64,000 nucleotides of DNA from Candidatus Zhuqueibacterota bacterium (GTDB taxonomy: Bacteria; Zhuqueibacterota; Zhuqueibacteria; Residuimicrobiales; Oceaniaggregativiventaceae). Positions 3,657 through 41,679 of the stretch are shown piece by piece. The stretch lies in NCBI GenBank assembly GCA_014728085.1, contig WJMF01000020.1, positions 74,608 through 138,607 on the forward strand. Reading direction: 5' to 3'. How positions within the stretch are numbered: position 1 is the first letter of the stretch; each line of letters opens with the position of its first letter. A program made the translations under genes and the position numbers. The notes beneath the pieces were generated by a model. That model made no database searches. It was not told the DNA's origin and saw only the letters and a program-made list of their open reading frames with translations.

Positions 3657-4571
3657 ATGAAAAAACCAAAATTGTGGTGGCGGGCAATCCGGCCGTTTTC
3701 GTTTACCGTCAGTGTGATTCCACCCCTTTTGGGTGGGTTGATTGCTGCCCGCGACTATACCGATTTAAAATTCAACTGGATCTATTTCATCCTGACCATT
3801 GCGGGATGTGTGCTCGCGCATGCCGGCAGCAATATGCTCTCCGACTATTATGACTTTAAAAGCAGAGTTGACCGCAAGGGCACATTTGGTTCCAGCGGCG
3901 TTCTGGTCGCCGAACTCATGAAACCGGAACAGCTTTTAAAAGGCGCCTGGATCGCTCTCGGCGCGGCGGCTCTCATCGGCCTCTATTTTATTTTGGCATT
4001 GAACCATTCCCTTTATTTGCTGGGCCTCATGCTGGCAGGCGGTGGACTGGGATACTTTTATACGGCAAAGCCTTTTGAACTAAAATATCACGCCCTGGGA
4101 GATATTGCGGTATTTATCGCCTTTGGCTCTGCAATGAGCCTGGGAGCTTATTTTATCCAGACCCGGATGTTTTCGTGGACACCTGTGTTATATGCGCTTC
4201 CCATTGCCCTGTTGGTCGATGCTATTTTGCACAGCAATAATTTACGCGACATCCAGAACGACAAGGCTGTCCATATCACCACCTTTGCGGCCATACTGGG
4301 GGGCCACCGTTCAAAATGGTTTTATTATTTCCTCGTGTTTGGTGCCTACATCCTTACCCTGATTCTCGTTCTCTCTGCAGGGCTCTCATGGCTGGCATTG
4401 CTCAGCTGGCTTTCCCTGCCGCTGGCGCTCAAGTTAGCAACGATGATGGCCCACAAAGAAAATCTGGATGTCAGTCGATTTGCAGCAATCGATGCCTTGA
4501 CCGCACAGCTCCATTCGGCATTCGGATTGCTGTTTCTTCTCGGCCTCACTTTGGATTATTTTGTCCTATGA
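3657..4571 (+). CDS. UbiA-family aromatic prenyltransferase (MenA-like)
   Basis: Nine predicted TM helices. First Asp-rich motif SDYYDFKSRVD (MenA-like N/S-D-Y-x-D-x5-D) and second motif NNLRDIQND. Confidence 0.8.
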   Translation: MKKPKLWWRAIRPFSFTVSVIPPLLGGLIAARDYTDLKFNWIYFILTIAGCVLAHAGSNMLSDYYDFKSRVDRKGTFGSSGVLVAELMKPEQLLKGAWIALGAAALIGLYFILALNHSLYLLGLMLAGGGLGYFYTAKPFELKYHALGDIAVFIAFGSAMSLGAYFIQTRMFSWTPVLYALPIALLVDAILHSNNLRDIQNDKAVHITTFAAILGGHRSKWFYYFLVFGAYILTLILVLSAGLSWLALLSWLSLPLALKLATMMAHKENLDVSRFAAIDALTAQLHSAFGLLFLLGLTLDYFVL

Positions 4572-5209
4572 TAAAAATAAACCGGCGAAATGATCTTATC
4601 GTTGCGGCATCTCTACTCCTCGCTTTTTTGCTCTGGTTTGTAACCTTTGTTGTAAAACCAATGAATTTTTGGCTGATGATGTCATTCAACACCCTGCTGC
4701 TTGCAGCCATTTCATTGTATGGCTGCAAACCCGAATTTTACAAACCATCCGTCAAAGACCTGATCGGCGGCATTTTTTCAGGCTTGTTTTTATATGCCGT
4801 TTTTTGGGCAGGGAATGAACTATTGATTTTCCTTTCGCGTTATATGTATCTGTTTGAAAACCGTGCCGAGAATATCTCCGCCATTTATGCAAACCGCCAG
4901 TCCTTGCCGCCATTTCTGGTAGCGCTTTTGCTCTTCTTTCCAATTGGATTTGGCGAGGAACTCTACTGGCGTGGATGGGTACAAATGTATACGGCTAAAA
5001 AATACAATGCCGGTTTTGCCTGGGCGGGAACCATCGTTCTTTATACATCGGTTCATCTCTGTACGGGTAATCCCGTTCTGATTCTGGCCGCCCTGACATG
5101 CGGATTTTACTGGGGAACCTTATATCGCCTGACCGGCAGACTATGGCTGGTTCTCTTCTCTCATATGATTTGGGACCCGCTTGTTTTTGTGATAAAGCCA
5201 ATCATGTAA
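4568..5209 (+). CDS. CPBP-family intramembrane metalloprotease (type II CAAX protease / Abi)
   Basis: EELYWRG (EExxxR), SVHL (FxxxH) and SHMIWD (HxxxD/N) motifs in TM helices. Its ATG overlaps the UbiA stop (ATGA), which suggests translational coupling. Confidence 0.75.
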   Translation: MIKINRRNDLIVAASLLLAFLLWFVTFVVKPMNFWLMMSFNTLLLAAISLYGCKPEFYKPSVKDLIGGIFSGLFLYAVFWAGNELLIFLSRYMYLFENRAENISAIYANRQSLPPFLVALLLFFPIGFGEELYWRGWVQMYTAKKYNAGFAWAGTIVLYTSVHLCTGNPVLILAALTCGFYWGTLYRLTGRLWLVLFSHMIWDPLVFVIKPIM

Positions 5210-6585: not shown

Positions 6586-7557
6586 TTAAAATGTTCTGGT
6601 TTCGATTTGCTCCAACAAGGCGACGAGAATATCTTTAGCTACAGACGCTTTTATCAAAGATAAATTCCGGCGTGCCGCACCGAGCGCTTGCTGAATTTCT
6701 TTTTCCGCCGCATCGAATGTCCCGCTCTTTTTACAGAGCTGAATGAATCGCGCGAAATCCGATTGGGCCGGTGATTTTAGCGCCAATATATCGTTAAAGA
6801 CCTGTAACGCTTCGGCGTGAAGATGGTCACGGGCATAAGATACCAAAAATGTTTTTTTGCCTCCCCGCAAATCGCTGCCGATTTTTTTCCCCAACACGTC
6901 ATCCCGGGAAATCAAATCGAGAATATCATCCTGAATTTGAAAGGCAAATCCGATTCGGTTGCCATACTGTTCCAGAGCTTTGATTTGCTCCGCGCTGCCG
7001 TCTCCGAGATATGCCCCCAACTGACAAGACAATGAGAAAAGCCGGCCGGTTTTTTTAGCAATCATGTCGTAATATTCTTGTACCGATACCCCTTCCCGTT
7101 TTTCAAAATCTTTATCCAGAACCTGACCTTCACAAATTTCCAAAATGCCGCTGGAAAACTCACCGATCATATAGGGCATTTTTTTTTCATCGACAGAGGA
7201 TAAAAGCTCAAATGCTTTTACCAGTAGAGCGTCGCCCGTAAGAATTGCCGTATTCTCATTCCACTTTTTATGTACGGTCTGACGTCCGCGTCGCAGATCA
7301 TCCTCATCCATAATATCGTCATGCACAAGGGTAAAATTATGGACACATTCCAGCGCCACGGCGACATCAAGCAAAGAACGAAAATCACCCCCAACCGCCT
7401 CACAACAGGCAAGAAACAAAACAGGACGCAATTGTTTGCCACCGGAACTCGCTACATAACGGACGGGATCGTAGAGTGAATTCGGTTTTCTGTCTCTAAA
7501 AATGGCCGCCGTCCGTTCATTGAGGGCGTCACGATATTGTGAGATTCTTTTTTGCAC
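6586..7557 (-). CDS. Polyprenyl diphosphate synthase (IspB/GGPPS family)
   Basis: FARM motif LVHDDIMDEDDLRRGR and SARM motif FQIQDDILD. At 323 aa it is the same length class as IspB. The track start is GTG. Confidence 0.9.
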   Translation of the reverse strand: MQKRISQYRDALNERTAAIFRDRKPNSLYDPVRYVASSGGKQLRPVLFLACCEAVGGDFRSLLDVAVALECVHNFTLVHDDIMDEDDLRRGRQTVHKKWNENTAILTGDALLVKAFELLSSVDEKKMPYMIGEFSSGILEICEGQVLDKDFEKREGVSVQEYYDMIAKKTGRLFSLSCQLGAYLGDGSAEQIKALEQYGNRIGFAFQIQDDILDLISRDDVLGKKIGSDLRGGKKTFLVSYARDHLHAEALQVFNDILALKSPAQSDFARFIQLCKKSGTFDAAEKEIQQALGAARRNLSLIKASVAKDILVALLEQIETRTF

Positions 7558-7715
7558 GTTTTTGCTTTATTAAATCACTGTAAAAAAAGTGCCCGGCTAT
7601 TTTACAGATAAACCGGACACGAAAAATTTTGTACCTGTTTTAAAAATACAATTTGAATGGAAGACAAGCAAGCAAAAAATCAGGCCAGCCAATGACGGGT
7701 ATTATCGGTCTCCAA

Positions 7716-8297
7716 TTATAATTCCGGGAATCCCTTTGTGCCTTTTGTTACCGCCTGCTGAAATTTGGTTTGGTCAAAAATCGCATTTTTCAAAGAGGCT
7801 TCGCTGAGATCGGCTTTGGAGAAAGAAGCACCGGTCAGGTCACACCGCTCAAGATGCGCATTCTTGAGATTAACCTGCTCCAAAACCGTCTTTCGACAAT
7901 TGGCCCGTTTCATTCGCGCCCGCTCCATGTTGGAGCCGCTGAGATTGGCATTTTCAAGGTTTGATCCGAAAAGACTAATATGATACATATTGGCATTTTG
8001 AAGCGAGGCATTCTCCAGATTGCAATCCTGCAGATTAGCGTCTTGCATATTGGTATTATCCAGATTTGCTGCAAGCAGATTGCTGCCAAAGAAGAAAGAT
8101 CCGGTCAGGTTGGCCCCTTTAAGGTTAGCCCCCTCAAAATTCGCATTATTCAGATTGGCTTTTGATAAATTCGCCCCTTCAAGATTAATGCCCTTTAAAT
8201 TTTCATATGACAAATCGATGCCGCTCAGGTCATACCCGGCCAGAGATTCGCCGTTTCTGATTTTTGCAACAACTTGTTCCCTGCTCATCGAAGGCAT
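7716..8297 (-). CDS. Pentapeptide-repeat protein
   Basis: Long run of A(N/D)L(S/T/K)x pentapeptides (ANLSKANLNNANFEGANLKGANLTGS...). The start was reassigned to the ATG at 8297, which has a GGAGAG ribosome-binding site six nt upstream. The track M at 8303 is TTG. Confidence 0.8.
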   Translation of the reverse strand: MPSMSREQVVAKIRNGESLAGYDLSGIDLSYENLKGINLEGANLSKANLNNANFEGANLKGANLTGSFFFGSNLLAANLDNTNMQDANLQDCNLENASLQNANMYHISLFGSNLENANLSGSNMERARMKRANCRKTVLEQVNLKNAHLERCDLTGASFSKADLSEASLKNAIFDQTKFQQAVTKGTKGFPEL

Positions 8298-8308
8298 AAA
8301 CAACTCTC

Positions 8309-8647
8309 CTATTTATAACTCTCAATGGCTTGTTCGACTGATTTATAGTCCGAAAAAACAGAATCGAGCTTTGTAATTTGAATGGGCCGGCGCAACCTGT
8401 CATTGAGATTGGCCAGTCTCAAATCTCCGCCGCTGCTCCTCAAGCTGGTCAGAGCGCTGATCAATACGCCGAGGCCGGAACTGTTCATCCAGCTAACCTG
8501 CGACATATCGACAACGACATTGACGGTTTCATTTTTCAACGTCTTGTCGATAATTTTACGAAAATCGTCATTCTCCGTTCCCCCCATCAATTCCCCTTTG
8601 AGTTTAAGAACAAGAACATCATTTTGAACTGATTCCTGAATATCCAT
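8309..8647 (-). CDS. STAS-domain protein (SpoIIAA / anti-sigma-factor-antagonist fold; possibly an MlaB-like ABC accessory)
   Basis: VVVDMSQVSWMNSSGLGVLISAL is the typical STAS core with its phosphorylatable Ser region. Strong AAGGAGG ribosome-binding site. It lies 6 nt upstream of the pentapeptide gene and 16 nt downstream of the ABC permease. Confidence 0.8.
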   Translation of the reverse strand: MDIQESVQNDVLVLKLKGELMGGTENDDFRKIIDKTLKNETVNVVVDMSQVSWMNSSGLGVLISALTSLRSSGGDLRLANLNDRLRRPIQITKLDSVFSDYKSVEQAIESYK

Positions 8648-8662
8648 ATATATCCTCCTTAA

Positions 8663-9892
8663 TTATTCATGCCGAAGCGCGGCGATGGGATCAAGACGAG
8701 CGGCCTTGCTGGCGGGATAGACGCCAAAAAGAATCCCGACAAAAGAACAAAAAATCAGGGCGCCAAAAACCACAAATACCGGCACGGCAGCAGGCACGGG
8801 CGAAACCATGTCGACAAATTTTGCCAATGCCAGCCCAAGCACGATACCTATAACGCCTCCGACTTCACACAGCACGATCGCTTCCACCAAAAATTGCCAC
8901 AGAATGTTGCGTTTCTTTGCCCCGATAGATTTTCGGATACCGATTTCACGTGTTCTCTCGGTAACGGACACCAACAGAATATTCATAATACCGACGCCGG
9001 CGACCAGCAGTGAAATAGATGCTATCGCTATACTCACAATACGGGCAATCCTGGTTAAATTATTGAAAAAATCCACCATGGTGTCATTGGAAAAAATTTC
9101 AAAATCATTCTCTTCACCCGGCGGCACCTTGCGCACCGCACGCATGACGCCAATGGTCTGTTCCATGGTCGCATTGAACAATTCCGCGCTTTTTGCCTGT
9201 ACCGTGATATTTAAAGAGCGCTCCTTACCAAAGATATCGATAAACGGACCAATCGGAACCACCACATAATTGTCCCTGCTGTTGCCAAAAGCGCTGCCTC
9301 TCTCGGCAAAGACACCGATGACCTGAAAACGAACACCGCGTATCTTGATCTCTTTTCCTGGCGGAGATTGAAAGGGAAACAGCCTTTCCGCCACCTCCCT
9401 GCCGATAACGGCAACAGAGCGGTTAAAGTTCAGGTCCTGGGGCACCAAAAATCGGCCCTCTGCCATTGTAAACCCATTATTCTCCAAAAACTCGGGCGTT
9501 CCCCCGCAAATCGACACGCTTGGCAACGTTTTGCGATCCTCGAATCGAATCTCCTCTCCTCCGGAACGCCAATATTCAGCCCCGATGGCACGGGCAAGAT
9601 GAACGCGTTCCTTGAGCGCAAGATAATGGTCAAGAGTGATGTCTTTGCGGTTTCGGTATTTACGCCGCTCGTCACCGCCGGCATTGATCGCCGGGTATTT
9701 TTGCACCTGGAACGTATTGGCCCCCAATCCGCTTACCTGTTCATGAAAGCTGTTTTGCAATCCCTGAACCAGGGAATACATGGCGATGATGGTCATTACA
9801 CCAATGATGATGCCGAGCAGGGTCAATGCCGAGCGCATTTTGTTCGTCCGGATGGCGGTCAGGGCAATATTAAAACTTTCTCCGACTTGCAT
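8663..9892 (-). CDS. ABC transporter permease, MacB/FtsX family
   Basis: N-terminal TM helix, large periplasmic domain and three C-terminal TM helices (FtsX). Paralogue of the next gene. Confidence 0.85.
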   Translation of the reverse strand: MQVGESFNIALTAIRTNKMRSALTLLGIIIGVMTIIAMYSLVQGLQNSFHEQVSGLGANTFQVQKYPAINAGGDERRKYRNRKDITLDHYLALKERVHLARAIGAEYWRSGGEEIRFEDRKTLPSVSICGGTPEFLENNGFTMAEGRFLVPQDLNFNRSVAVIGREVAERLFPFQSPPGKEIKIRGVRFQVIGVFAERGSAFGNSRDNYVVVPIGPFIDIFGKERSLNITVQAKSAELFNATMEQTIGVMRAVRKVPPGEENDFEIFSNDTMVDFFNNLTRIARIVSIAIASISLLVAGVGIMNILLVSVTERTREIGIRKSIGAKKRNILWQFLVEAIVLCEVGGVIGIVLGLALAKFVDMVSPVPAAVPVFVVFGALIFCSFVGILFGVYPASKAARLDPIAALRHE

Positions 9893-9921
9893 GCTAGCCT
9901 CACAGGAAATAAAATAAAGTT

Positions 9922-11154
9922 TTATTCATAACGCAATGCTTCAATGGGATTGAGTTTGGCCGCCTTGCTCGCCGGGTAGATACCGAAAAAGATACCGATG
10001 ACGGTGGTAAAAGCCAATCCCAGGAATACAACCCATGGCGTGATTACAGCGGGAATAGGTGAAACAGAAGCGACGAGTTTTGCCAGTCCAACAGCACATA
10101 AAATACCGATAAACACACCGATGGCGCAAATCATAATGGATTCTATGAGAAACTGTACCATGATATCAAATCGCTTGGCGCCGATCGCTTTGCGAATCCC
10201 GATCTCGCGCGTTCTTTCGGTGACGGACACCAATAGAATATTCATAATACCGATACCACCCACCAGGAGCGAAATCGATCCGACTCCAATGGCAACAGCC
10301 CACAGAACACCGGTCAGGTCATTATAGGTGTCCATTAGCATACTTTGTTTGTTAATGGCGAAATTGTTTTCATCACCCCCGCTTAATCCGCGTATCCTCC
10401 GCATAACGCCGGCAAGCTCGATTTCCGCATCTTCGACCAGGTCCGGTGATTTTACCTTTACTTCCATTTGTACCGAGCGGTAACGCGTTCCAAAAATCGA
10501 GGCAAAAGTGTTGATCGGGATAAACACCCAGGTATCAAAATTATTGTTGAAAAATGAACCTTTTTTTTCCCGCACACCGATAACGCGCATTTTTCGGCCT
10601 TCGATCGAAACGCGTTTGCCGATAGGATCGGTATTGGGAAATAATTTTTGAGCCACTTCCCAGCCGAGAACGCATACCGAGCGACGATGATCAACATCCG
10701 TGGACGTAAAAAAACGGCCGTATTCAGGATAGGCATTTGAGGTGATCAAATAATCCTCTGTGGTGCCGACGACAATTGAACCTTCGAGCTTGCGTTCGCG
10801 ATATTGTATGTTACGTCGCGTATAGAGAGCCGGTGCCACAGCTTCCGCCAGGCGGGAAAGCTCTTTAACGCGTTCAGCTTCATGGATTTTGATGTTGGGC
10901 CGGTTACGATAGGCAAAATAAGTATCCCTGTCCATAAACCAGGAATATTTATCAATATAAAGCGTATCAGAACCGAGTGCGCTGATTTCCTCGGTAAAGG
11001 CTTTGTTCAGGCCCTGTACCAGTGCAACAATCGTAATAACGGTCATTACACCGATGACAATTCCCAAAGTGGTTAATATGGATCTCATTTTATAGGCACG
11101 CAAGGCCGTCAGCGCGATTTTCAGGCCTTCTCCTATATAAATTAAAATTCTCAT
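9922..11154 (-). CDS. ABC transporter permease, MacB/FtsX family (second copy)
   Basis: Same architecture as 8663..9892 and clear paralogy (IGIRKAIGAKR / IGIRKSIGAKK). Confidence 0.85.
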   Translation of the reverse strand: MRILIYIGEGLKIALTALRAYKMRSILTTLGIVIGVMTVITIVALVQGLNKAFTEEISALGSDTLYIDKYSWFMDRDTYFAYRNRPNIKIHEAERVKELSRLAEAVAPALYTRRNIQYRERKLEGSIVVGTTEDYLITSNAYPEYGRFFTSTDVDHRRSVCVLGWEVAQKLFPNTDPIGKRVSIEGRKMRVIGVREKKGSFFNNNFDTWVFIPINTFASIFGTRYRSVQMEVKVKSPDLVEDAEIELAGVMRRIRGLSGGDENNFAINKQSMLMDTYNDLTGVLWAVAIGVGSISLLVGGIGIMNILLVSVTERTREIGIRKAIGAKRFDIMVQFLIESIMICAIGVFIGILCAVGLAKLVASVSPIPAVITPWVVFLGLAFTTVIGIFFGIYPASKAAKLNPIEALRYE

Positions 11155-11171
11155 AAGACAGAAATCCTGTA

Positions 11172-11864
11172 TTAAAGTGCCAATTCACTCTTTGCTTCAT
11201 CCCGCTCAACATAACCATCGCGTAAGCGGATGATGCGGTCTGAATGTTCAGCAATATATTCTTCATGAGTCACCAGAATAATGGTATTGCCGGCATCGTG
11301 CAGCTCTTCGAACACTTCCATAATTTCATCGCCCGTCTTGCTGTCGAGATTACCTGTGGGCTCATCGGCCAGTATAATGGAGGGATTGTTAACAAGAGCG
11401 CGGGCGATAGCAACCCGTTGACGCTGTCCGCCGGATAACTCGTTGGGTTTGTGGTGCATTCTATCTGTGAGCCCGACGCGATCCAGCGCATTCTCCGCCT
11501 GCTGGCGTCGTTTAGAAGAAGGCGTTCCGTTGTATATCAAAGGTAATTCCACATTGTGAAGGGCATTTGCCCGGGGTAACAAATTAAAGGTCTGGAAAAC
11601 AAAACCAATCTCGCGATTCCGGATTTCTGCGAGTTGATCGTCATCCATATCACTGACATCGACATCATTGAGGAGGTAGGTACCACTGGACGCTGTATCC
11701 AGACAACCGATTATATTCATCAAGGTAGACTTGCCCGAACCCGACGGACCCATGATGGCCACATACTCGTTTTGCCCGATATTGAGATCGACGTCCCGAA
11801 GGGCATTTACCGAAATGCTACCGATCTCGTAAACTTTATTGATATCCTTTAGTTGAATCATCAT
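11172..11864 (-). CDS. ABC transporter ATP-binding protein (MacB/LolD type)
   Basis: Walker [13 protein letters not shown] signature [15 protein letters not shown], and Walker [12 protein letters not shown]. Confidence 0.9.
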
Positions 11865-11879
11865 ATAACTCGTCCTCTC

Positions 11880-13118
11880 TTAATCCAATTCGTCTTTCCG
11901 ATAGCCGATATCTTTGTTAACTTTTACCTCACTACCGTCTTTCAGCAACCGCGATAAGGCTTTATAGCTTCCGGAAACAACCATTTCATCTTCCTGCAAG
12001 CCGGAGACAATCTCAATGTTGGTGTCATCGCTGATACCGGTTTTGACCGGCCTGACATTGGCGATGCCCTCCTCCACCACAAAGACGACTTCAGTTTTTT
12101 CTTCCTTTTTTTCCTCCTCTTCGCCCTCTGAATCGGATTCTTTCTCTTCGGAAGAGCGTTTCGCAGAAACGTCGGCGCTGTCTTTTTTTACCTCCCGAAC
12201 CGTAACGCACTGAATCGGAACATATAGAATATCATGATGTGTTTCGGTCATGATATCAACCGTTGCGGACATGCCCGGCCTTAATTGTTCCACCGGCGAA
12301 GTGACGGCTACCTTGACTTCAAAATTTGTAACCTGTTCCTGTGTGCCCAGCCCCCGCGTTGTCGCCATATGAGCGATTTCGGATACCCGGCCGTTGAAAA
12401 ATGTGTCGGGGATGGCATCTACCTCGATATTGCACTTATCATCGATTTTAACATAGACAACATCATTTTCATCAATCTCGGCCAAAACCTCCATGCGATT
12501 TAAATCGGCAACGTTGAGAATCGGATCGGATTGGAACTGGGAGCCGACCGCGATCTCTCCCTCTTCTTTATAAACTTTAACCACCGTTCCATAGATAGGC
12601 GAAATCAGCCTGGTTTTTCGAAGATCGTCCATTGCCTGTTTCAGATAGGCTTCTGCCTGTTTAACCTGGCTCTCCGCAGACATGAGCTGAGCTTCTGCAG
12701 CATCCAGATCGGCCTGAGAGGTGAGGTCCTTCTTATACAGATCATTAATTCTTGAAAAATCAGCACGCGCTTTTTTAAGGGCAGCGAGAGCCGATAATTT
12801 CGACGACTCTGCCTGCTCAACGGCGGCCTCGTATCGCTGACGATCAAGCTCGACCAAAAGCTTCCCCTTGTTAACCGTTTCACCCTCTTCAACATGTATG
12901 CTCGTAATCTCCGCGGATATACGGGCGGAAATATCAACCTCCATCTCCGGCTGAACCTGACCCGAGCCGGATATCGTTCTTGTAATATCACCGCGCTTTA
13001 CCTCCACGGCAGAGATTTCAAGACCACCCGTTGACTGCTTGCGCAGATTAATAAAAATCATTACGGCAACGACGACAACCAGGATAATTGCAAGAATGAC
13101 TTTTTTCTGTTTCGACAT
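11880..13118 (-). CDS. HlyD/MacA-family periplasmic adaptor (membrane fusion protein)
   Basis: N-terminal TM helix, a long coiled-coil segment (AAVEQAESSKLSALAALKKARADFSRINDLYKKDL...) and barrel domains. Confidence 0.85.
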   Translation of the reverse strand: MSKQKKVILAIILVVVVAVMIFINLRKQSTGGLEISAVEVKRGDITRTISGSGQVQPEMEVDISARISAEITSIHVEEGETVNKGKLLVELDRQRYEAAVEQAESSKLSALAALKKARADFSRINDLYKKDLTSQADLDAAEAQLMSAESQVKQAEAYLKQAMDDLRKTRLISPIYGTVVKVYKEEGEIAVGSQFQSDPILNVADLNRMEVLAEIDENDVVYVKIDDKCNIEVDAIPDTFFNGRVSEIAHMATTRGLGTQEQVTNFEVKVAVTSPVEQLRPGMSATVDIMTETHHDILYVPIQCVTVREVKKDSADVSAKRSSEEKESDSEGEEEEKKEEKTEVVFVVEEGIANVRPVKTGISDDTNIEIVSGLQEDEMVVSGSYKALSRLLKDGSEVKVNKDIGYRKDELD

Positions 13119-13258
13119 TATTCAGCCTCATTTTTTAATACGTGTCTGTGTACCTGAACCACCGGCGAACGCAGCTGCAACAGGCCGGCACTTGCCGATT
13201 TTATACCTGCCGCTAAAGCGAAAATTTATACAATTTTTACTGCCGGTAAAACTCGTGT

Positions 13259-14668
13259 TTAATTTTCCTCCATACCCATAGCGGTTTCAAGTTCCGCTCT
13301 GGCAATCTTGGCCTCGTATTCTGCGCGAACATAGGCGCTTTGTGCCGATACCAGTTCAACTTGCGCCTGGGTCACTTCAAGCTCCGTTCCGGAACCCACC
13401 CGGCGCCGTTCTTGCTGCAAGCGCAAATTCTCACTCGCCGCTTCAATGTTTTCTTTGTTGATCTGCAAAAAATCGCGATAAGCTTCTAAATTTAAAAAGT
13501 ACTGCTTGACATCAACGGTCAACAGGCGTTTGGCCTCACGCAGGTTCTCCATAGCCATATCGTAATTAATTCTGGCTTTTTGAATAGCGGCCTTGTCGGC
13601 AAACCCCTTAAAAATATTAAGGTCGAGTTGAACACCGATGGTTGCGGTAAAATCTTCATTCAGATCGGTGCTAAAAACCCGCTCATATTGATCGTTATTG
13701 CGGCTGTAGGATATACTGCCGCCGATTGTGGGCATGTAACGCGCCTTTGCTGAAGCGAGATTATAGTAGTAACGTTTAACATCCATTTCCAGAGCTTTGA
13801 TGTTCTGATTTTCATCGATGGCGATTTCAAGAGCTTGGTCAAACGTGTACTCGGGAAAAATCGTCTCCGTTTCATCTTCCACAACCTCGACAGGCGTGCT
13901 CGGATCTATACCCAGGGCGCTGTTTAAATTGGCCCGGGCAATCTGGACCAAATTCTGTTGAGTAATATAATCCCGTTTATTGTTTCCCAGATTTACTCGT
14001 GCCTGATAGACCTCTGCCTGCGATGCCAGCCCGATATCCAGTCGCGTTTTGGCCTCTTCCACCTGCTCCTCGGCATAGTCAACCGCTTGTTTATAGACCT
14101 GTACCAATTTTATGGTTCTTAAAAGGTCATAATAGGATTTTTTTACATTCAGGATCACAGCAAGTCGGGTGTCCTGATAACTGTATTCGGAGGATGCTTC
14201 AATGGCTTTGGCGCCGCGAATGTTGTTGCTGCTGCGTCCAAAATCCCAGATATTTTGCGACAGCGATATTCGCGCACCATAGGAATTCCGTTCCGTGCGA
14301 TCCTGGGTGATGACCTGCTGTTCATAGATGACGTTTCCGGTTTCCGGATCCACCCCCCGGGGAACATCGGTCTTCATCCTTCTGGCACCCTGTATGTACT
14401 TTCCGGAGCTAATGCTGGAATTTATACGGGGTAAAACCGAAGACCAGGCAGAAGTAACATCCGCCCCGGCAAATTCGACACGACGCCCTGCATTGCGCAG
14501 AGTGGAGTTGTTTTCCAGTGCAATCTTGATACAATCCGGCAAATTGAGCGGCCTTTCATTCTGAGAATAAATTTCTTCCTCCTGAGAATAAACAGCGCCG
14601 CCCCATACCAGAATCGCTATGAAAATAATAATATAGTTTTTCAGCATACGCCAAACTCCCACAATCAA
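13259..14668 (-). CDS. TolC-family outer-membrane efflux protein
   Basis: Signal peptide and two repeated helical/beta halves typical of outer-membrane factors. It is first in the operon. Confidence 0.8.
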   Translation of the reverse strand: MIVGVWRMLKNYIIIFIAILVWGGAVYSQEEEIYSQNERPLNLPDCIKIALENNSTLRNAGRRVEFAGADVTSAWSSVLPRINSSISSGKYIQGARRMKTDVPRGVDPETGNVIYEQQVITQDRTERNSYGARISLSQNIWDFGRSSNNIRGAKAIEASSEYSYQDTRLAVILNVKKSYYDLLRTIKLVQVYKQAVDYAEEQVEEAKTRLDIGLASQAEVYQARVNLGNNKRDYITQQNLVQIARANLNSALGIDPSTPVEVVEDETETIFPEYTFDQALEIAIDENQNIKALEMDVKRYYYNLASAKARYMPTIGGSISYSRNNDQYERVFSTDLNEDFTATIGVQLDLNIFKGFADKAAIQKARINYDMAMENLREAKRLLTVDVKQYFLNLEAYRDFLQINKENIEAASENLRLQQERRRVGSGTELEVTQAQVELVSAQSAYVRAEYEAKIARAELETAMGMEEN

Positions 14669-14695: not shown

Positions 14696-15406
14696 CTAGG
14701 CTCCAACCAAACTTCCGATCGAAATGGAAACAACATAATACAGCACATACACCCCGATTACCCAGGGAACAACTTTTTTGACCTCGCGATTGCTCATGAT
14801 CGCAATTCCAATACAAAGCACCGCGATTCCCCAGATATTAAAAACTTCTACCTTGGATAAAAATTTGTATAAAAAACTCTCCGAAGATTGTAAAAACATC
14901 GCCACGCTAAAATGCACATCTATACTTTCTTTGGATAAAATAACAGGTACCTTGATATAGCCCCCCAGTAAATCAATAAAGGATTTATAAACGACCACCC
15001 CCAAAAGTTGTGAGTATTTGGCTTGTCCGCCGAGAATGATATTGGAAACAAACAACCATATACCTGCCAAAACAAAAAAAGCAACAAATGATCCGATCAG
15101 GGCCATCGGGTACATGAGAATTTTGCCAATGCCGAGATTTTTTTCAGCAATCTCTTCAGCCTGATCTTCCGCCATGCCCCTTTCCATCAGAGCTTCGACC
15201 GTTTTTTCCTTTTGAACATCCATGACCACAGGTTTGATCAGATGGGTCATTCCCACAGCCAGCACAGCATAAATGATCGCCGGAATCAGCCAGGCGGGTT
15301 TCACTTTTACAGCTTTGAAGGTTGCGCCAGGGGCGATGAAAACGTTAATGATGCGGGAAAAAAGTCCCATGCCCTGTTGTTGTTCAATAACTTGATTTTC
15401 TTCCAT
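14696..15406 (-). CDS. Yip1-family membrane protein
   Basis: Five TM helices, a glycine-rich N-terminus and Yip1/DUF1282-like topology. Confidence 0.55.
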   Translation of the reverse strand: MEENQVIEQQQGMGLFSRIINVFIAPGATFKAVKVKPAWLIPAIIYAVLAVGMTHLIKPVVMDVQKEKTVEALMERGMAEDQAEEIAEKNLGIGKILMYPMALIGSFVAFFVLAGIWLFVSNIILGGQAKYSQLLGVVVYKSFIDLLGGYIKVPVILSKESIDVHFSVAMFLQSSESFLYKFLSKVEVFNIWGIAVLCIGIAIMSNREVKKVVPWVIGVYVLYYVVSISIGSLVGA

Positions 15407-16914: not shown

Positions 16915-17399
16915 TCTCTTCTGATATTTCGCTTTTTCACACCAACATCCTCCTGCAGGTTGCTCCTAAAGCTCGCACATGACGTTTTCTTCAAACGCTA
17001 AACAGCCCTGAACAATATGCGATGTTCTATCGCATCCGGAAATGGTTCACTCGAAGGAATATTAATTATTTGATTGGTTTTTGTCTTGTTTTTTTTAAAA
17101 AAAATAGTCATTATAATACTAAATAGACTTGTAAAGGGGGCTTGCTACTATTCAATATAGAATTCTGGGCCAGAAAAACAATCTTTTTCATTTTTGAAAT
17201 CTATTGTCTCATGAATGTACAAATGTTTCAGTAAAACACGACCATTTTTTATACCGTTTTCAAGACGTCAACATATCCTTGTCGTTGTTTCAAAAACTCA
17301 TGTTTACAATTGCAGAAAAAATCGATAGTTGCATCCCGGACGTTTACCGCTGGATCTGTGAGCGGATTTTTTTAATCCGGGATCAAACGCTGAATTAAA

Positions 17400-17415
17400 T
17401 GGCACTGTATTTGCG
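17400..17415 (+). promoter_or_regulatory. Sigma-54 (-24/-12) promoter candidate: TGGCAC-N5-TTGCG
   Basis: tggcactgtatttgcg has the correct GG-N10-GC spacing. It lies 68 nt upstream of the ATG of the large secreted protein. Confidence 0.5.
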
Positions 17416-17482
17416 TTGCACTAGCCAGTATGCCATATCGGCATCACGAGGCCGAATTTTGGTGAATCAACTGGAGGAAAAG

Positions 17483-20400
17483 ATGAAACCGAATTTCTAT
17501 CTATGTATATTGTTACTGTTGATCGGGTTTACCGCCCCGCTGCTGGCTCAGGAAGGTACCATTATCGACAGAACCACGGCAGACCCGGAAAAAAGCGGCT
17601 ATGCCCGTTGGATAAAACTGACCTTTCAAACCACACCGGGCGGCACCAACAATCTCAACGACAATTTTAACGGTGTCAAGTTTATGATCGACCTGAATCT
17701 CGACCGGGACGATAACGCGACAACACACACCCCCGGTGAGGTTTATGCCATTCGTGGCGATTCGATCAAGACGCACTTTAACAACTCTGGTGGTCAATTT
17801 GATCAGTATTTGTATTTACCCATCAGAGGGAATCACGATACCAACATTCGGCCACGCGTAAAACTGGAAACCACAGGTTCACTCAGAATCGGCGCTTTTC
17901 AGCTAACCATCCAAAACGATACCGGATATGAAACCTGCCGCGACGGCATCAAACCGAACCTGAGAATGGCGATTTATTATGATGACGGCAGTGGTTCATC
18001 CGGTCCCGAACCGCAAAGCCCGGGCAATACCACCGCTTTTGACGGTTATATCGACCGCATCGATATTATCTGGAGTGAACCCATGGATACAACCAATAAA
18101 GCGGTTAGCGGCGACATTTTTAATGGACTTGGCGATACAATTCTGCGAACGCAAACGACAGGTGGGTGGTACGATGACGAAAACCCCCTGACCTATGACT
18201 ATCAGAGATTTACATTTTACGTTATTTCGAGCACACCCAATACCGGTGTCTCCATCACCCTCACCTATCAGCCCCCCGTCAGCAGCCTGGACAAATTCAA
18301 AGCCAAGTTTCCTTATGATGGTGTCAATCGCTATGAAGCTGAAAGCCATTCCGTCACGGTTCAGGACAAGGCGGGGCCGGCAATTATCAGCGCAAAGACC
18401 GTCAGAGCACATGGTAAAAGACGTCAGCCTCTGGCCGACGCACTTACCAGCAAACGCGTACTGGTCACCTTTAGCGAAAAGGTCAATCGCGCCAATTTAC
18501 TCCTCGATGATCTGACCTTTACCGTTACCATCATGGGTACGCAGCAGGATATTTATGCCGTGCGCTTTCCCACCAGCGGATATAGTAAAACCTTTGAAAT
18601 TGAGCTGGATGATCCCTATTCAACCGAAAACGATACCGGCAGTATTCGTTATAGCGGCAGCTCCCTGGTTTCGGATATCAATGGCAATCTTAATGGCATT
18701 TCTACAGCCAACGAGCCACCCACGCGACCCGCTGCGGGCTATGGACGCCTGATATACATTTGGGATGGAATCCTGCCCAACATTATCCGCGTCCGTACCC
18801 GAGATGTTGCTTTGCCGGGCGAGCTGATCAACGGCGGCGCAAACGGATGGGGGGTGCTCGATTATGTCGATATTATTTTTGATCACACCATGGACACAGG
18901 GCAGCTCAGCACGAGCGGCTTTACTGTCGAAGGAGAAGGCATACAGGGCATCGCCGGGGTTGGAACCTGGTTTAACAGCACCACTTTTCGCATCCCCATA
19001 GCGGCAAGCAACCCCAAAATGCCCAATACCGGCGTATTGCCACAGGTAAAATATGAAAACCCGGAAGCGCCGAACGGCATGAGAGATAACACAAATTACG
19101 GCTATACCGAAGATGTTTTCTACAGCGATACGATGTTGTCGAACAGCAATTACCGCATCGTGGAAATCATCGATAACGCCGGTCCGGCCATATGGCGAGC
19201 GACCACCGCGAGTAAAAACAGCATTCGCATCACCTTTAGCGAAAAAATCAAAACCAATTTTCCCTCGAGCTCCAATTGGCCGACAAATCCCGCACATGCC
19301 TATACTTCACCAAAAAAATTCATCTGGTATGTAGACAATGTTGCCTCCGAGGATACAGGAACCGAAATTTTCTTTACCGGCATTCAGCCGAACTATCAAA
19401 ACAAAATTGTTTATCTGCACCAGACCGGAACGACCTGGACAAAATACGATAGCGGTGGAATCAATTTCACCGGCCAGGGTGTTGTAAGAGATATTGCCAA
19501 CAACGGCAACGATCAGTATGATAATGATACCAGTCTGAGCTCAAAAACAATTCTGGGATCGGATGTCAAGGTATACAGAGATACGATTGCACCAAATCTT
19601 GTTGCCGTTCAAACTGTAGATACCGATTTGAACGGAAAAATTGACGGCTATCGATTTGTTTTTGACGACACCTCTGCCGTTTACCCCAAAACCTCTTTTA
19701 ATACTGAAAACTGGTCGGTTATATCCTATTATACGCTGGAAACCAAAACCTTGCTTGGATTGGATGAAAGCGGCTATACCGTCGTCGGTTCTGATACCCT
19801 CTCGGTCTTGTTGCGTTTCGAAGAAACCCCGAATGACACGTTGAAAAAGAGAGCTTATCTCGGTGACACCGGCGATGTTCCCGATATCATTGTTGCGACC
19901 GGCCAGGGCCTTTCAGACTGGGCCGGCAATGTTATGGATCCATTGCCCATCGGTATAACCAAAGAACAGGACAAATCCGGTCCTGCCATCTGCAGCGCCA
20001 AAACCATCAGTCTCCAGGACGTCGATGTCTTTGTTAGTGAAGATCTTAAAGACAGCACCGTTTCCCGGGAGGATTTTCTGCTCAATATGGTGGTTCAAAC
20101 CCCGATTACAAGCACGTTGCCCATCATAACCGCCACAGAACAGACACCCGAAATGCACAGCAATCCGGAGGAGATCAAACATGGCCGCGTCACGCTTACA
20201 GTACCCCTGGTAAGTGCATGGCAGCCGGATTATGAAGGCTTTGTGGCATTTTCCTATCCGGGCGCGGTCTATGATCACGTCAGCAATGGTCCCGGTGTCG
20301 ATCCCATGATGGACAATCCAAATACACAGCTGGACACTATTAAGGTCGACGACAATGCCGCCAGTCAGTTCGATATTCATGTGAAAATACCCGGCAATCC

Positions 20401-21994
20401 GGTTAGCGGTGCCCCCTTTCAGGTAGAAGTGATTGCCCTTGATAGTGATGGAGAGATAGACCGAAATTTTCCCTATGAAATCTTTTTCTCCAGCAACCTT
20501 CCGACAAATGATATCTCCATGCCATACGGCCCCCATGCATTGGAGGAAGGCGTGGGGCTGTTCACGGTTACAAGTTGGGTGGAAACCAACAATCTCGTCT
20601 TTATGGTTTCCGTGAATAATGATAACTATTCAGGATATCACAGCCAATCCGCGCCAATCACCATAGAAGCCCCGGTAATTGATGCGCCGGACACACTGAT
20701 CGTTGAGGACTATCCCAATGACCAGGGAAGCCATGTCATTTTAAAATTCGATTATTCCGACAACCATCCGGGTATCGGCGAAAACAATTTGATCAGCTAT
20801 TATCAGATTTACCGCGAAGTCAATCACCAGGTTTTCCATTGGTACACACAACCCGCTATCGACACGACAGGAAGCTATGCTGATTCAATGATTATCGTGC
20901 TCAATACAGTTGATAACGAAGAATCCAACTTTTGGGTACGTGCCGTCCACGACCGCAATCGAAGCCTCGCCAAACGATTTGTTTCTCAGACAGACGATCA
21001 GGACGGCTATCTTGTTGCCGAAAGCATAGATCCGATGATGCTTTACAGCGAAGGAAAAATCAGCGAAGAGTACGGCGCCTATATGAAAACCCTGAACGCC
21101 GGACAATATTTATCCGCAACGGTTATGTCTCATGGCCGGGCCGTCGATAACATACAACCCAAAATGCCTGAAAATCTATTGGCCGCCAAGGAAGGCGTCG
21201 CGGTTAAATTGATGTGGAATAAAGTCCGTTTGGGTGTCAACAACACACCCGAAGGAAAACTTTACTATGAAATCTATGCCCACAATCAAAACGCTTACTT
21301 TAATCCGGATGAAGATGGTGAGCTGCTGGCAACCATCGAAGATACGTCGTTTACCATTCCGGACAATCGTTTGCGACGGTTTTATTGCATACGCGCATTT
21401 GACGGAGACAACAGGTCCGCTGTCTCAAATCGGGTCGGGAAATATGGATTCACGATGAATAAAAACAAAAACAGTTCATTCAACTATCTCTCTTTTCCGC
21501 TGGAGACCTGGGATATAACGGATGCAAAGAGCGTATCGCAAATGATTGAAAACCTGCAAGTCCTCTACAAACTAAACCCGGTGACCAACAGCTTTTCGAC
21601 CTATTATATCCCACAGATAGAGTATGGAACCAACTTTGCCCTTGAAACCGGGGCGCCGCTGCTGGTAAACAACGATAAAACCATTGCCGATACCTGGTTT
21701 TATACCGGTAAAATACCAGCGGTTGGATCGGTTAAATTCACTCTGAACAAGGGTGAAAAATCCATCTTTAATGAAATCATCGTCCCACTGGACAAATTTG
21801 ATATTACCAATGCCGATCAATTGGCCAATAATATCGGCGGCATTGAGATTGTTTACAAGCTCGATCCGGAAACCAATGCCTTCAGTAAATTCTGGATCCC
21901 GGACATCGGCTATGGCGAAAATTTTGCAATCATGCCCGGTGAACCGGTACTTATCAACATTAATCAAAATGCCCCGGACATGTGGCCTAACTAG
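17483..21994 (+). CDS. Very large secreted protein (about 1504 aa) with a signal peptide, repeated Ig-like/beta-sandwich-type segments and a tandemly duplicated C-terminal roughly 55-aa module
   Basis: GGAGGAAAAG ribosome-binding site then ATG at 17483. Signal peptide MKPNFYLCILLLLIGFTAPLLAQ. No enzymatic motif was recognised. Internal repeat YKLNPVTNSFSTYYIPQIEYGTNFALETGAPLLVNND / YKLDPETNAFSKFWIPDIGYGENFAIMPGEPVLININ. Confidence 0.7.
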   Translation: MKPNFYLCILLLLIGFTAPLLAQEGTIIDRTTADPEKSGYARWIKLTFQTTPGGTNNLNDNFNGVKFMIDLNLDRDDNATTHTPGEVYAIRGDSIKTHFNNSGGQFDQYLYLPIRGNHDTNIRPRVKLETTGSLRIGAFQLTIQNDTGYETCRDGIKPNLRMAIYYDDGSGSSGPEPQSPGNTTAFDGYIDRIDIIWSEPMDTTNKAVSGDIFNGLGDTILRTQTTGGWYDDENPLTYDYQRFTFYVISSTPNTGVSITLTYQPPVSSLDKFKAKFPYDGVNRYEAESHSVTVQDKAGPAIISAKTVRAHGKRRQPLADALTSKRVLVTFSEKVNRANLLLDDLTFTVTIMGTQQDIYAVRFPTSGYSKTFEIELDDPYSTENDTGSIRYSGSSLVSDINGNLNGISTANEPPTRPAAGYGRLIYIWDGILPNIIRVRTRDVALPGELINGGANGWGVLDYVDIIFDHTMDTGQLSTSGFTVEGEGIQGIAGVGTWFNSTTFRIPIAASNPKMPNTGVLPQVKYENPEAPNGMRDNTNYGYTEDVFYSDTMLSNSNYRIVEIIDNAGPAIWRATTASKNSIRITFSEKIKTNFPSSSNWPTNPAHAYTSPKKFIWYVDNVASEDTGTEIFFTGIQPNYQNKIVYLHQTGTTWTKYDSGGINFTGQGVVRDIANNGNDQYDNDTSLSSKTILGSDVKVYRDTIAPNLVAVQTVDTDLNGKIDGYRFVFDDTSAVYPKTSFNTENWSVISYYTLETKTLLGLDESGYTVVGSDTLSVLLRFEETPNDTLKKRAYLGDTGDVPDIIVATGQGLSDWAGNVMDPLPIGITKEQDKSGPAICSAKTISLQDVDVFVSEDLKDSTVSREDFLLNMVVQTPITSTLPIITATEQTPEMHSNPEEIKHGRVTLTVPLVSAWQPDYEGFVAFSYPGAVYDHVSNGPGVDPMMDNPNTQLDTIKVDDNAASQFDIHVKIPGNPVSGAPFQVEVIALDSDGEIDRNFPYEIFFSSNLPTNDISMPYGPHALEEGVGLFTVTSWVETNNLVFMVSVNNDNYSGYHSQSAPITIEAPVIDAPDTLIVEDYPNDQGSHVILKFDYSDNHPGIGENNLISYYQIYREVNHQVFHWYTQPAIDTTGSYADSMIIVLNTVDNEESNFWVRAVHDRNRSLAKRFVSQTDDQDGYLVAESIDPMMLYSEGKISEEYGAYMKTLNAGQYLSATVMSHGRAVDNIQPKMPENLLAAKEGVAVKLMWNKVRLGVNNTPEGKLYYEIYAHNQNAYFNPDEDGELLATIEDTSFTIPDNRLRRFYCIRAFDGDNRSAVSNRVGKYGFTMNKNKNSSFNYLSFPLETWDITDAKSVSQMIENLQVLYKLNPVTNSFSTYYIPQIEYGTNFALETGAPLLVNNDKTIADTWFYTGKIPAVGSVKFTLNKGEKSIFNEIIVPLDKFDITNADQLANNIGGIEIVYKLDPETNAFSKFWIPDIGYGENFAIMPGEPVLININQNAPDMWPN

Positions 21995-30579: not shown

Positions 30580-30656
30580 TGGCGGGGCCGACGGGACTTG
30601 AACCCGCGACCTCCGGCTTGACAGGCCGGTGTGCTAACCAACTGCACTACGACCCC
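30580..30656 (-). tRNA. tRNA-Asp (anticodon GTC)
   Basis: The reverse complement GGGGTCGTAGTGCAGTTGGTTAGCACACCGGCCTGTCAAGCCGGAGGTCGCGGGTTCAAGTCCCGTCGGCCCCGCCA folds as a cloverleaf with CCA encoded. Close to E. coli tRNA-Asp. Confidence 0.9.
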
Positions 30657-30685
30657 GTAAACACTAAACATTTCAATAATAACCG

Positions 30686-30761
30686 GGTGGGCCGTACTGG
30701 ATTCGAACCAGTGGCCTCCTGCTTGTAAGGCAGGCGCTCTAAACCAGCTGAGCTAACAGCC
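30686..30761 (-). tRNA. tRNA-Val (anticodon TAC)
   Basis: The reverse complement GGGCTGTTAGCTCAGCTGGTTTAGAGCGCCTGCCTTACAAGCAGGAGGCCACTGGTTCGAATCCAGTACGGCCCACC has the anticodon loop CTTACAA. Confidence 0.9.
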
Positions 30762-30783
30762 CGAAATCGTTAACCCCTCGATT

Positions 30784-34226: not shown

Positions 34227-34251
34227 AAATCGGTGTCCTGCTGATAAATCG

Positions 34252-41545: not shown

Positions 41546-41578
41546 CAATGCAATCTTGCGTTTATAGCGATTAATCAA

Positions 41579-41594: not shown

Positions 41595-41679
41595 CCTGTT
41601 AAAATTTTAATCCAGACAGCAAAATTATAAATTATTAAAATACAGCTGGATAACCGCCTTCTCAACAGAGGCGAATGAT

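Follow-up and report, generated by a model that had tools for sequence, protein, structure and literature searches.

A STAS-domain protein and a pentapeptide-repeat protein encoded at the 3' end of a MacB-type efflux pump operon

An eight-gene tripartite efflux operon

The window (the whole 64 kb stretch of DNA that was analyzed, which comes from an uncultured KSB1 bacterium) carries seven co-directional open reading frames at positions 7716-14668 of its minus strand, identified from the ORF list and a Pfam scan, the last two of which encode a STAS-domain protein and a pentapeptide-repeat protein (PRP). Read in the direction of transcription, these genes encode a TolC-family outer-membrane factor (13259-14668; Pfam OEP, E 1.8e-69), a MacA/YknX-like periplasmic adaptor or MFP (11880-13118; HlyD_D23, HlyD_3 and TIGR01730), a stand-alone ABC ATPase (NBD) of the MacB/YknY/LolD type (11172-11864; ABC_tran, E 9.5e-35), two MacB-type permeases (permease 1, 9922-11154; permease 2, 8663-9892), a single-domain STAS protein of 112 aa that falls in the SpoIIAA/RsbV class (8309-8647; PF01740, E 7e-20) and a stand-alone cytoplasmic PRP of 193 aa (7716-8297, or to 8303 with a TTG start; PF00805, E 2e-43). 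Coordinates and Pfam domains agree with the gene assignments of the original prediction, which had placed seven genes in the operon. All seven are confirmed, but the unit is one gene longer. A Yip1-domain, YknW-like polytopic membrane protein is encoded on the same strand at 14696-15406 (Pfam Yip1, E 4.6e-13, 49.8 bits against a cut-off of 28.6), and its gene ends 27 nt before the TolC gene, as read from the sequence. Because this gene adjoins the TolC gene and accompanies the pump in relatives, where it also lies directly upstream of the OEP gene, we consider the operon to comprise eight genes, with the Yip1 gene as its probable first.

Intergenic gaps are mostly 15-29 nt, the exception being 140 nt between the TolC and MFP genes. 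Permease 2 and the STAS gene are separated by 15 nt, not 16 as previously counted, and this gap contains the motif AAGGAGG. The PRP gene likelier starts at the ATG at 8297, which is preceded by AGGAG, than at the TTG at 8303; the STAS-PRP gap, earlier given as 6 nt, is then 11 nt, the alternative start leaving 5 nt. Both genes are preceded by sequences that read as ribosome-binding sites. On the same strand, about 95 nt past the PRP stop codon, RNA folding and sequence inspection revealed a GC-rich 10-bp hairpin (7620-7589) followed by U7, an intrinsic-terminator-like element (7582-7620) that would close the operon. Judged from gene spacing, the single transcript originally proposed is supported.

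Both permeases match MacB_PCD (E ~1e-43) and FtsX (E ~1e-23) and are 46% identical to each other; by analogy with LolC and LolE, they probably form a heterodimer. The adaptor scores 189.4 bits on TIGR01730 (cut-off 94.9), and the TolC-family protein 179.6 bits on TIGR01844, below the subfamily cut-off. MacB is the best NCBIfam match of the ATPase and of both permeases; for the ATPase, the NBD part of MacB ranks ahead of DarD and LolD, and none of the three reaches its equivalog cut-off. With FtsX and MacB_PCD permeases, a cognate adaptor and a TolC-family factor in one operon, the locus has the hallmarks of a MacB-type (type VII) pump, and is a MacAB-TolC/YknWXYZ-type tripartite ABC efflux pump operon. 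Two more specific identities were rejected: the fused E. coli MacB equivalog (NF007826, 211-268 bits against 966), the NBD being encoded separately here, and LolCDE (lolCE models 49.5 and 44.1 bits against 362; LolD 230.8 against 307.75), which the MFP and TolC genes in the operon also contradict.

The closest described arrangement is YknWXYZ of Bacillus, a MacB-type exporter of four components, one of them from the Yip1 family: YknW, which in B. subtilis is accessory to YknXYZ (PMC4887032). Both operons join a Yip1/YknW-like protein, an MFP, a stand-alone ATPase and a MacB_PCD and FtsX permease, and orthologues of the present MFP carry YknX-type domains (Beta-barrel_YknX and YknX_C). The present system differs in being diderm, with a TolC-family gene, in having two paralogous permeases instead of one, and in its Yip1 protein, which scores 78.8 bits on the NCBIfam YknW model, below the cut-off of 110. 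To our knowledge, no STAS or PRP gene belongs to YknWXYZ. With MacAB-TolC the operon shares the permease fold family, the periplasmic core domain, the adaptor and the TolC-type exit duct, whereas its separate ATPase, presumed heteromeric permease pair, Yip1 subunit and two cytoplasmic accessory genes set it apart.

Distribution of the pump and its two 3'-end genes

Eighty genome loci were gathered with permease 2 as the query. Among them, conservation of a pump core (Yip1, TolC, MFP, ATPase and at least two MacB-type permeases) extends throughout the FCB group, to Ignavibacteriota, Bacteroidota, Marinimicrobia, Zixibacteria and Caldithrix, and the core often adjoins the gene for the CCA-adding enzyme. 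With this synteny, the core is an old, chromosomally fixed FCB-group operon and not an island of resistance or biosynthesis genes.

The STAS and PRP genes have a far narrower distribution than the core. They occur together in 3 of the 80 loci, and all 11 STAS orthologues with contigs looked up (55-69% identical) have the pump and the PRP gene alongside. Gene order in STAS-bearing loci is invariably Perm-Perm-STAS-PRP, no locus among those examined carries either gene alone, and the pair is confined, in the same set, to one KSB1/Calditrichota-like clade, in which the 3' end of the core was extended by these two genes for cytoplasmic proteins. Conservation of the two genes with the transporter in relatives, on which the original prediction depended, is thus borne out. 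The flanks of the block vary, with a CCA enzyme, peptidase M20 or PhoU gene upstream and a polyprenyl synthase, glycogen phosphorylase or NACHT protein gene downstream. In a neighbor-joining tree, permeases from STAS-bearing operons group together. In the ATPase, just four positions distinguish the STAS-bearing clade, and shared ancestry alone could account for them. Both accessory genes are under purifying selection, with dN/dS values of 0.10 for STAS and 0.04 for PRP, next to 0.02-0.16 for the pump genes.

Three observations bear on how tightly the pair is tied to the pump. Two loci placed within the clade by the neighbor-joining tree (L003 and L006) lack both genes, so the pump is not strictly dependent on them. 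In some relatives, permease 2 and STAS lie far apart, 322 nt in L090, so the two genes could have their own promoter there. Synteny is generally conservative in this lineage, with the polyprenyl synthase gene also often following the block, and the linkage of pump, STAS and PRP is therefore suggestive of shared function rather than proof of it.

The STAS and pentapeptide-repeat proteins

The STAS protein scores 82.8 bits on the anti-sigma-antagonist model TIGR00377 (cut-off 53.45) and 21.5 bits on the MlaB model NF033618 (cut-off 90). Its PDB sequence and fold neighbors are TM1442, SpoIIAA, TM1081 and RsbV; the AF2 model (pLDDT 92) has TM1442, SpoIIAA and RsbV as its top Foldseek matches, with TM-scores of 0.84-0.88 to 1vc1, 1th8 and 3f43, and MlaB is missing from both the PDB sequence matches and the 50 fold matches listed. 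In the alignment, the segment WMNSSGLG...RSSGGDLRLANL...RRP..ITKLD is nearly invariant. Within its first motif, Ser56 is identical in 27 of 27 aligned sequences and retains the phosphorylatable serine that the SpoIIAA/RsbV class carries at the N-terminus of helix alpha2; from motif comparison, we take it to be the equivalent of SpoIIAA Ser58. By sequence and modeled fold, the protein is a member of the SpoIIAA/RsbV phospho-switch class, and the "MlaB-like" label first attached to it has to be given up. The locus does resemble MlaB-MlaF in that a single-domain STAS gene lies at the 3' end of the operon for an ABC transporter, and we know of no STAS protein other than MlaB that is well documented to dock on an ABC ATPase; here, however, a PRP gene accompanies the STAS gene, and by Pfam the operon has no MCE/MlaD component or MlaE-type permease.

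Classical anti-sigma antagonists normally act on kinases and anti-sigma factors, not on transporters. The two genes may accordingly be passengers: the STAS protein and the PRP would then serve a partner-switching pathway that acts on something other than the pump, for instance a sigma factor or a different enzyme, with kinase and phosphatase encoded elsewhere, sharing the pump transcript so that expression but not function is coupled. The canonical class of the STAS protein by HMM, PDB sequence search and fold, with its invariant phospho-site serine, is in keeping with this account, as are the room for a separate promoter in L090 and the retention of the pump without the pair in L003 and L006. 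Unlike SpoIIAA and RsbV, however, this protein has no linked kinase, PP2C or sigma factor, its constant neighbors being the pump and the PRP gene. As originally noted, the ORFs scanned in the 64 kb window include neither a HATPase_c/RsbW-type kinase nor a PP2C phosphatase, and none of the listed flanks of related loci contains an anti-sigma kinase or PP2C phosphatase; a sigma factor is likewise missing from both the window and those flanks. Linkage to the 3' end of the pump persists in the 11 orthologues and the 3 genome loci despite changing surroundings, and we regard the passenger account as unlikely.

The AF2 model of the PRP (pLDDT 95.7) comprises an N-terminal helix followed by ~7.7 uninterrupted beta-helix coils, without loop insertions of the Qnr/AlbG type. 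Its orthologues are colinear and 44-55% identical, and the family spans 180-195 aa and ~8 coils. Of the 19 surface residues that are invariant across 13 orthologues, 15 map to a single one of the four faces (corrected P ~2e-7), where mean surface conservation is 0.88 as opposed to 0.52-0.60 on the others. This face bears an invariant basic cluster (R128, K130, R131 and R151), and its singular conservation suggests a longitudinal protein-binding stripe. The best NCBIfam PRP model is HetL (NF047416), which covers residues 15-182 at 103.1 bits (cut-off 260). Scores are lower for the Qnr model (67 bits against 240), the MfpA model (41.8 against 360) and the individual Qnr subfamily models (32-49 against 425-500), and no AlbG or McbG family is among the NCBIfam matches. 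Generic cyanobacterial-type PRPs precede Qnr, MfpA and AlbG among its PDB sequence and fold neighbors; HetL ranks high and AlbG low among the fold matches.

The original prediction saw in this locus protection against a gyrase or topoisomerase poison, which the pump would export while the PRP would act as a DNA-mimicking protector like McbG, AlbG, Qnr or MfpA, with the STAS protein as regulator of the system. As in those proteins, the PRP is stand-alone, cytoplasmic and of similar length (near MfpA, QnrB1 and AlbG in PDB listings), and most of its orthologues are mildly acidic (net charge -4 to -8). McbG, too, is encoded beside an exporter, its gene adjoining those of McbEF. Topoisomerase-protecting PRPs dimerize through a C-terminal alpha-helix, and a short helix is predicted at residues 176-184 of the window protein, where MfpA, Qnr and AlbG carry theirs (PMC8145042). 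That region, however, is poorly conserved, the L085 orthologue stopping before most of it, and mean pLDDT drops there from 92 to 80. The profile searches proposed with the original prediction, in which the Qnr and MfpA models failed and HetL scored best, also speak against gyrase protection, as do the higher-ranking generic neighbors, the beta-helix free of loop insertions and conservation on one face only, basic cluster included. Within a pI range of 4.7-6.1 and net charges down to -8, the window PRP is itself nearly neutral (net charge -1, pI 6.1). The pump core is housekeeping-like and FCB-wide, and no biosynthetic cluster was found within the 64 kb window. MacB-type pumps, moreover, take their substrates from the periplasmic side. 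Gyrase protection is on these grounds improbable.

Least probable of all is an immunity function in the manner of HetL, in which the pump would expel a toxic or signaling peptide and the PRP would keep that peptide off a cytoplasmic target by taking up its binding site there, as HetL protects HetR from PatS: HetL is the best-scoring model and a high-ranking fold neighbor, the one-faced stripe is compatible with protein binding, YknWXYZ guards against the peptide toxin SDP (PMC4887032) and HetL works by protein-protein contact and competition (PMC7476756), but the score lies far below the equivalog cut-off, the operon shows neither a HetR-like nor a peptide gene, and the STAS protein is left without a role. 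A further Nostoc parallel is HglK. This membrane protein with four transmembrane segments is required for depositing heterocyst glycolipids (PMC8145042), whereas the present PRP is soluble, and heterocyst-related genes are absent here. The glycolipids deposited in heterocysts leave the cell through a pump, DevBCA-HgdD, that is also of the MacB type.

A proposed accessory pair for the pump

Taken together, the STAS protein and the PRP resemble a hitherto undescribed accessory or regulatory pair of the pump more than a cassette for gyrase protection, and the view that the combination is new agrees with the literature searched, which yielded no match. That the two proteins form a cytoplasmic accessory or regulatory pair of this pump is the reading we tentatively favor. 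It builds on what was observed: which genes are present and inherited together, the purifying selection on them, the assignments to family and fold and the one-faced conservation; the physical contacts and the effects on the pump are those that we infer. The conserved face of the PRP would be where a partner protein docks, whether the STAS protein, the ATPase dimer or both. Turning this contact on or off would fall to the STAS protein, perhaps by way of its phosphorylation state, set by a kinase and a phosphatase encoded elsewhere, and such switching would tune the ATPase activity or the assembly of the pump. A precedent is MlaB, a STAS protein that binds and regulates the ABC ATPase MlaF (PMC7790496). 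A narrower version, in which the PRP binds through its conserved face to the ATPase dimer or the cytoplasmic helices of the permeases and is released or recruited according to the phosphorylation state of the STAS protein, is more doubtful.

If the STAS-PRP pair does regulate the pump in this way, it would represent a partner switch in which a beta-helix takes the place of the anti-sigma factor and an efflux pump is the output, and the PRP would be the first with a defined role in regulating an ABC transporter.

An eight-gene efflux operon for a widespread MacB-type pump

The operon comprises eight genes, all on the minus strand, encoding a YknWXYZ/MacAB-TolC-type pump. Pfam domains identify a TolC-family outer-membrane factor (13259-14668), a HlyD-type adaptor (MFP; 11880-13118), an ABC ATPase (11172-11864), two MacB_PCD+FtsX permeases with 46% identity to each other (permease 1, 9922-11154; permease 2, 8663-9892), a 112-aa STAS protein (8309-8647) and a pentapeptide-repeat protein (PRP; ORF 7716-8303). 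Sequence reading places an AAGGAGG within the 15-nt gap between permease 2 and STAS genes, and designates the ATG at 8297, which is preceded by AGGAG, as the most likely PRP start, leaving an 11-nt gap after the STAS gene. The seven ORFs of the block originally predicted at 7716-14668 were recovered, but the unit is larger and includes a Yip1-domain gene (14696-15406) that lies 27 nt upstream of the TolC gene. About 95 nt past the PRP stop lies a GC-rich hairpin of 10 bp and, after it, U7 (7620-7582, minus strand), which a pattern scan for sigma-70 promoters and terminators missed because the hairpin loop exceeds 8 nt; the scan otherwise returned background-level matches only. Rfam detected neither a riboswitch nor a leader RNA in the vicinity of the operon, and PADLOC yielded no defence-system match for the STAS, PRP or Yip1 proteins.

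The pump core is old and widespread. Across 80 loci from species-representative genomes (L001-L080), fetched with permease 2 and annotated with phmmer, the gene order (CCA-adding enzyme or Yip1)-TolC-MFP-ATPase-permeases is shared by Ignavibacteriota, Bacteroidota, Marinimicrobia, Zixibacteria, Caldithrix and further groups. The CCA-adding enzyme is syntenic with the core across much of the FCB group (e.g. L043:7393-13935, L035, L040), and operons contain two to five tandem MacB-type permease paralogues served by a single ATPase gene. Several relatives carry an additional 142-145 aa ORF between the TolC and MFP genes with no recorded Pfam match (L081:3077-3505, L088:4058-4495); the equivalent interval in the window (13119-13258) is a 140-nt non-coding gap.

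Against the NCBIfam YknW family, the Yip1 protein scores 78.8 bits, under the cut-off of 110, and orthologous adaptors contain YknX-type domains; on this basis, the closest described machine is YknWXYZ, a four-component exporter of Bacillus (PMC4887032), of which the window pump is a diderm counterpart equipped with a TolC gene and a heteromeric pair of permeases. Identity with LolCDE was rejected, given the failure of the LolCDE models and the presence of MFP and TolC, as was a mobile resistance cassette, given the conserved synteny and unremarkable GC content.

Several prenyl-related genes surround the operon, including a polyprenyl synthase directly downstream (6586-7557), which also follows the PRP gene in most relatives, a UbiA prenyltransferase (3657-4571), an M48 CAAX prenyl protease (24940-26184) and a Rce1-like CAAX protease within 4316-5209, an ORF call that overlaps the adjoining ones and probably begins too early. 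On the plus strand, a 1531-aa ORF without Pfam match (17399-21994) precedes a 320-aa ORF with a T9SS C-terminal sorting domain (22025-22987); contig L086, looked up from a STAS orthologue, has a 1504-aa gene without Pfam match at the corresponding position, divergent from the CCA-enzyme gene. The presence of a T9SS sorting-domain protein is in keeping with the FCB group. The window also encodes another, unrelated efflux system at 31155-35571 (minus strand), made up of a 1023-aa AcrB-family RND transporter and its own HlyD-type adaptor. The sole Rfam/ARAGORN matches in the window are tandem tRNA-Asp(GTC) and tRNA-Val(TAC) genes (30580-30762, minus strand), and a PAS-sigma54 activator followed by small Nitro_FeMo-Co-like, DUF5320 and DUF4405 genes (40139-43556, plus strand) may form a sigma54-controlled unit.

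A strictly co-inherited STAS and pentapeptide-repeat gene pair

The STAS and PRP genes are a lineage-specific addition to this pump, strictly co-inherited with it and under purifying selection. Only three of the 80 genome loci have them, and each has both: L001 and L002, with a permease 95% identical to that of the window, and L004 (52%). A search with the STAS protein returned more than 100 clusters of proteins of 111-123 aa with 55-79% identity, the named ones belonging to KSB1 or Calditrichaeota. One STAS homologue, annotated as from a candidate division KSB1 bacterium, shows 100% identity to the window protein. All 11 contigs looked up from STAS orthologues (55-69% identity) preserve the order permease(s)-STAS-(180 to 201-aa gene), with only a single permease or permease fragment visible upstream of STAS in two short contigs. 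Conservation of the two small genes with the transporter, as the original prediction implied, is therefore borne out by these contigs and the three genome loci, with the evidence for linkage spanning 14 independent lineages. The flanks of the block are variable, with a CCA enzyme, peptidase M20 or PhoU upstream and a polyprenyl synthase, glycogen phosphorylase or NACHT protein downstream.

The proteins of 180 to 201 aa encoded after STAS are orthologous to the window PRP, with which they are colinear at 44-55% identity, without internal indels and sharing 29 invariant residues. Comparison of the window with L001 gives dN/dS values of 0.10 for STAS and 0.04 for PRP, within the 0.02 to 0.16 seen for the pump genes, and these values, together with conservation alongside the pump, indicate that both genes encode proteins under constraint. 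A neighbor-joining tree of permease 2 groups STAS-bearing operons into one clade with two subclades. Loci L003 and L006 fall inside this clade yet lack STAS and PRP, the permease being followed by GatC, KdsB and PyrG; this absence reflects either loss or tree noise. The gap between permease 2 and STAS reaches 322 nt in L090 (L090:8679-9000) and about 200 nt in L094, against 11-70 nt in most other contigs, and such long gaps suggest that STAS and PRP may have their own promoter in some lineages.

PRP orthologues were collected solely via the adjoining STAS gene. Single-sequence and alignment-profile searches with the PRP gave repeat-driven matches only, and in an exhaustive phmmer search of 1.84 billion representatives giant multi-repeat proteins swamped the output. 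The orthologues (L081:8355-8930, L084:8394-8966, L085:8355-8897 and others) have no Pfam entry in precomputed gene tables and were retrieved by neither word-indexed nor exhaustive protein search. Short, regular PRPs such as these in effect escape such search routes, and similar linked PRPs elsewhere may consequently be under-counted.

Class of the STAS protein and conserved face of the pentapeptide-repeat protein

The STAS protein passes the anti-sigma-factor-antagonist model TIGR00377 (82.8 bits, cut-off 53.45) and fails the MlaB model (21.5 bits, cut-off 90). A profile of 27 orthologues matched exclusively anti-sigma antagonists in the PDB (TM1442, SpoIIAA, TM1081, RsbV and RsfB), and the AF2 model (pLDDT 92), a canonical beta-alpha STAS fold, has its best fold matches in the same set, with TM-scores of 0.84-0.88; MlaB is absent among the 50 fold matches listed. 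The likeness to MlaB originally proposed for this protein is, on these model, PDB and fold results, an analogy of operon position and not family kinship. Ser56, in the motif WMNSSGLG, is invariant in the 27-orthologue alignment and by motif presumably corresponds to Ser58 of SpoIIAA, the residue phosphorylated in that protein. Residues 53-94 (end of beta3, alpha2, beta4, alpha3), which we take to be roughly the surface by which SpoIIAA binds SpoIIAB, are nearly invariant, though the orthologues are only 55% identical overall. By sequence and model, the protein qualifies as a member of the partner-switching class with the switch serine retained. Neither a HATPase_c-type kinase nor a PP2C phosphatase is encoded in the 64-kb window or in the flanks of related loci, in line with the initial observation that none is nearby. 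The class of the protein would suit a passenger partner-switching module sharing only the transcript of the pump, an explanation to be set against strict co-inheritance with that pump and one that we consider rather unlikely.

The PRP sequence has no signal peptide and no hydrophobic segment. Its AF2 model (pLDDT 95.7) comprises an N-terminal helix (6-14), an uninterrupted beta-helix from about 22 to 174 (~7.7 coils) without loop insertions, and a short C-terminal helix (176-184) of lower confidence; conservation does not extend to the C-terminal tail, most of which L085 lacks. Invariant residues recur with a 20-position period (Y31, N51, G71, D91, G111, R131, R151). The pentapeptide register was used to assign each position to one of the four helix faces; in the comparison of 13 orthologues, a single face with 24 of the 91 surface positions carries 15 of the 19 invariant ones (hypergeometric P ~2e-7, corrected for face choice), and mean surface conservation was 0.88 on this face versus 0.52-0.60 on the other three. 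The conserved stripe, DxSY / N.N / FxFG.N / NxQD.N / H..L.G / RxKR / R, runs along coils 1-7 and is chemically mixed, with an invariant basic cluster; its residues are D28, S30, Y31, N51, N53, F68, F70, G71, N88, Q90, D91, N93, H106, G111, R128, K130, R131 and R151. The window protein carries a net charge of -1, its counterparts in other lineages -4 to -8. Judging from sequence and model, a single mixed face of this kind would be expected of a dedicated protein-protein interface and not of all-round DNA mimicry.

This pattern bears on the original prediction of a cassette combining export with gyrase protection. The size, location and predicted C-terminal helix of the PRP are compatible with such a role, whereas DNA mimicry would predict conservation other than on a single face with an invariant basic cluster, and the PRP falls well under the NCBIfam cut-offs for the gyrase protectors Qnr (67 vs 240) and MfpA (42 vs 360); we regard this explanation as improbable. 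The sequence and fold neighbours of the PRP in the PDB are PRPs of the generic cyanobacterial type (designs derived from Np275/276, and HetL, which the sequence search lists as All3740), ranking above Qnr, MfpA and AlbG, with the qualification that Foldseek on the PRP model lacks the power to tell PRP subfamilies apart, all beta-helices matching one another. A HetL-like peptide-immunity role would agree with these neighbours, but the HetL model is also failed (103 vs 260), and we deem it very improbable.

A candidate regulatory input to the pump

Our preferred reading, offered tentatively and as a possibility short of probable, is that the conserved PRP face docks on STAS, on the ATPase dimer or on both, in a contact gated by the state of STAS. 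The two proteins would act on the cytoplasmic side of the pump, and the STAS state might be set by phosphorylation by an unlinked kinase, resulting in a partner switch with the pump as its output. MlaB and MlaF provide a precedent for a STAS protein able to regulate an ABC ATPase (PMC7790496). In the pump ATPase, only D76, T114, E183 and R221 set STAS-bearing operons apart; these residues were rejected as a hint of an interface, being too few and too confounded by shared ancestry.

MacB-type pumps (MacAB, LolCDE, FtsEX, YknXYZ, DevBCA) operate by mechanotransmission driven from the cytoplasmic ATPase, the regulation of which is, to our knowledge, largely unknown. We regard the pump as belonging to a known family, and the conserved accessory pair attached to it as undescribed. 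In agreement with the novelty initially proposed for the combination, full-text literature searches found no paper joining pentapeptide repeat, STAS domain and ABC transporter, or pentapeptide repeat and anti-sigma factor antagonist, and papers naming STAS domain and MacB together are about Mla or are general reviews. Most pentapeptide-repeat proteins have no known function, and a review of the family lists no transporter-regulating member with a known mechanism, HglK and RfrA remaining unexplained (PMC8145042).

To date the pair has been seen solely in uncultured KSB1/Calditrichota-like bacteria, which makes its immediate practical reach modest. Its strict co-inheritance with one MacB-type pump makes it a tangible candidate, open to test, for a regulatory input of a new kind, and the conserved PRP face and the STAS phospho-switch serine provide specific residues open to mutation. 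If confirmed, this mechanism would extend partner switching to the control of efflux and give a pentapeptide-repeat protein a role as a protein scaffold.
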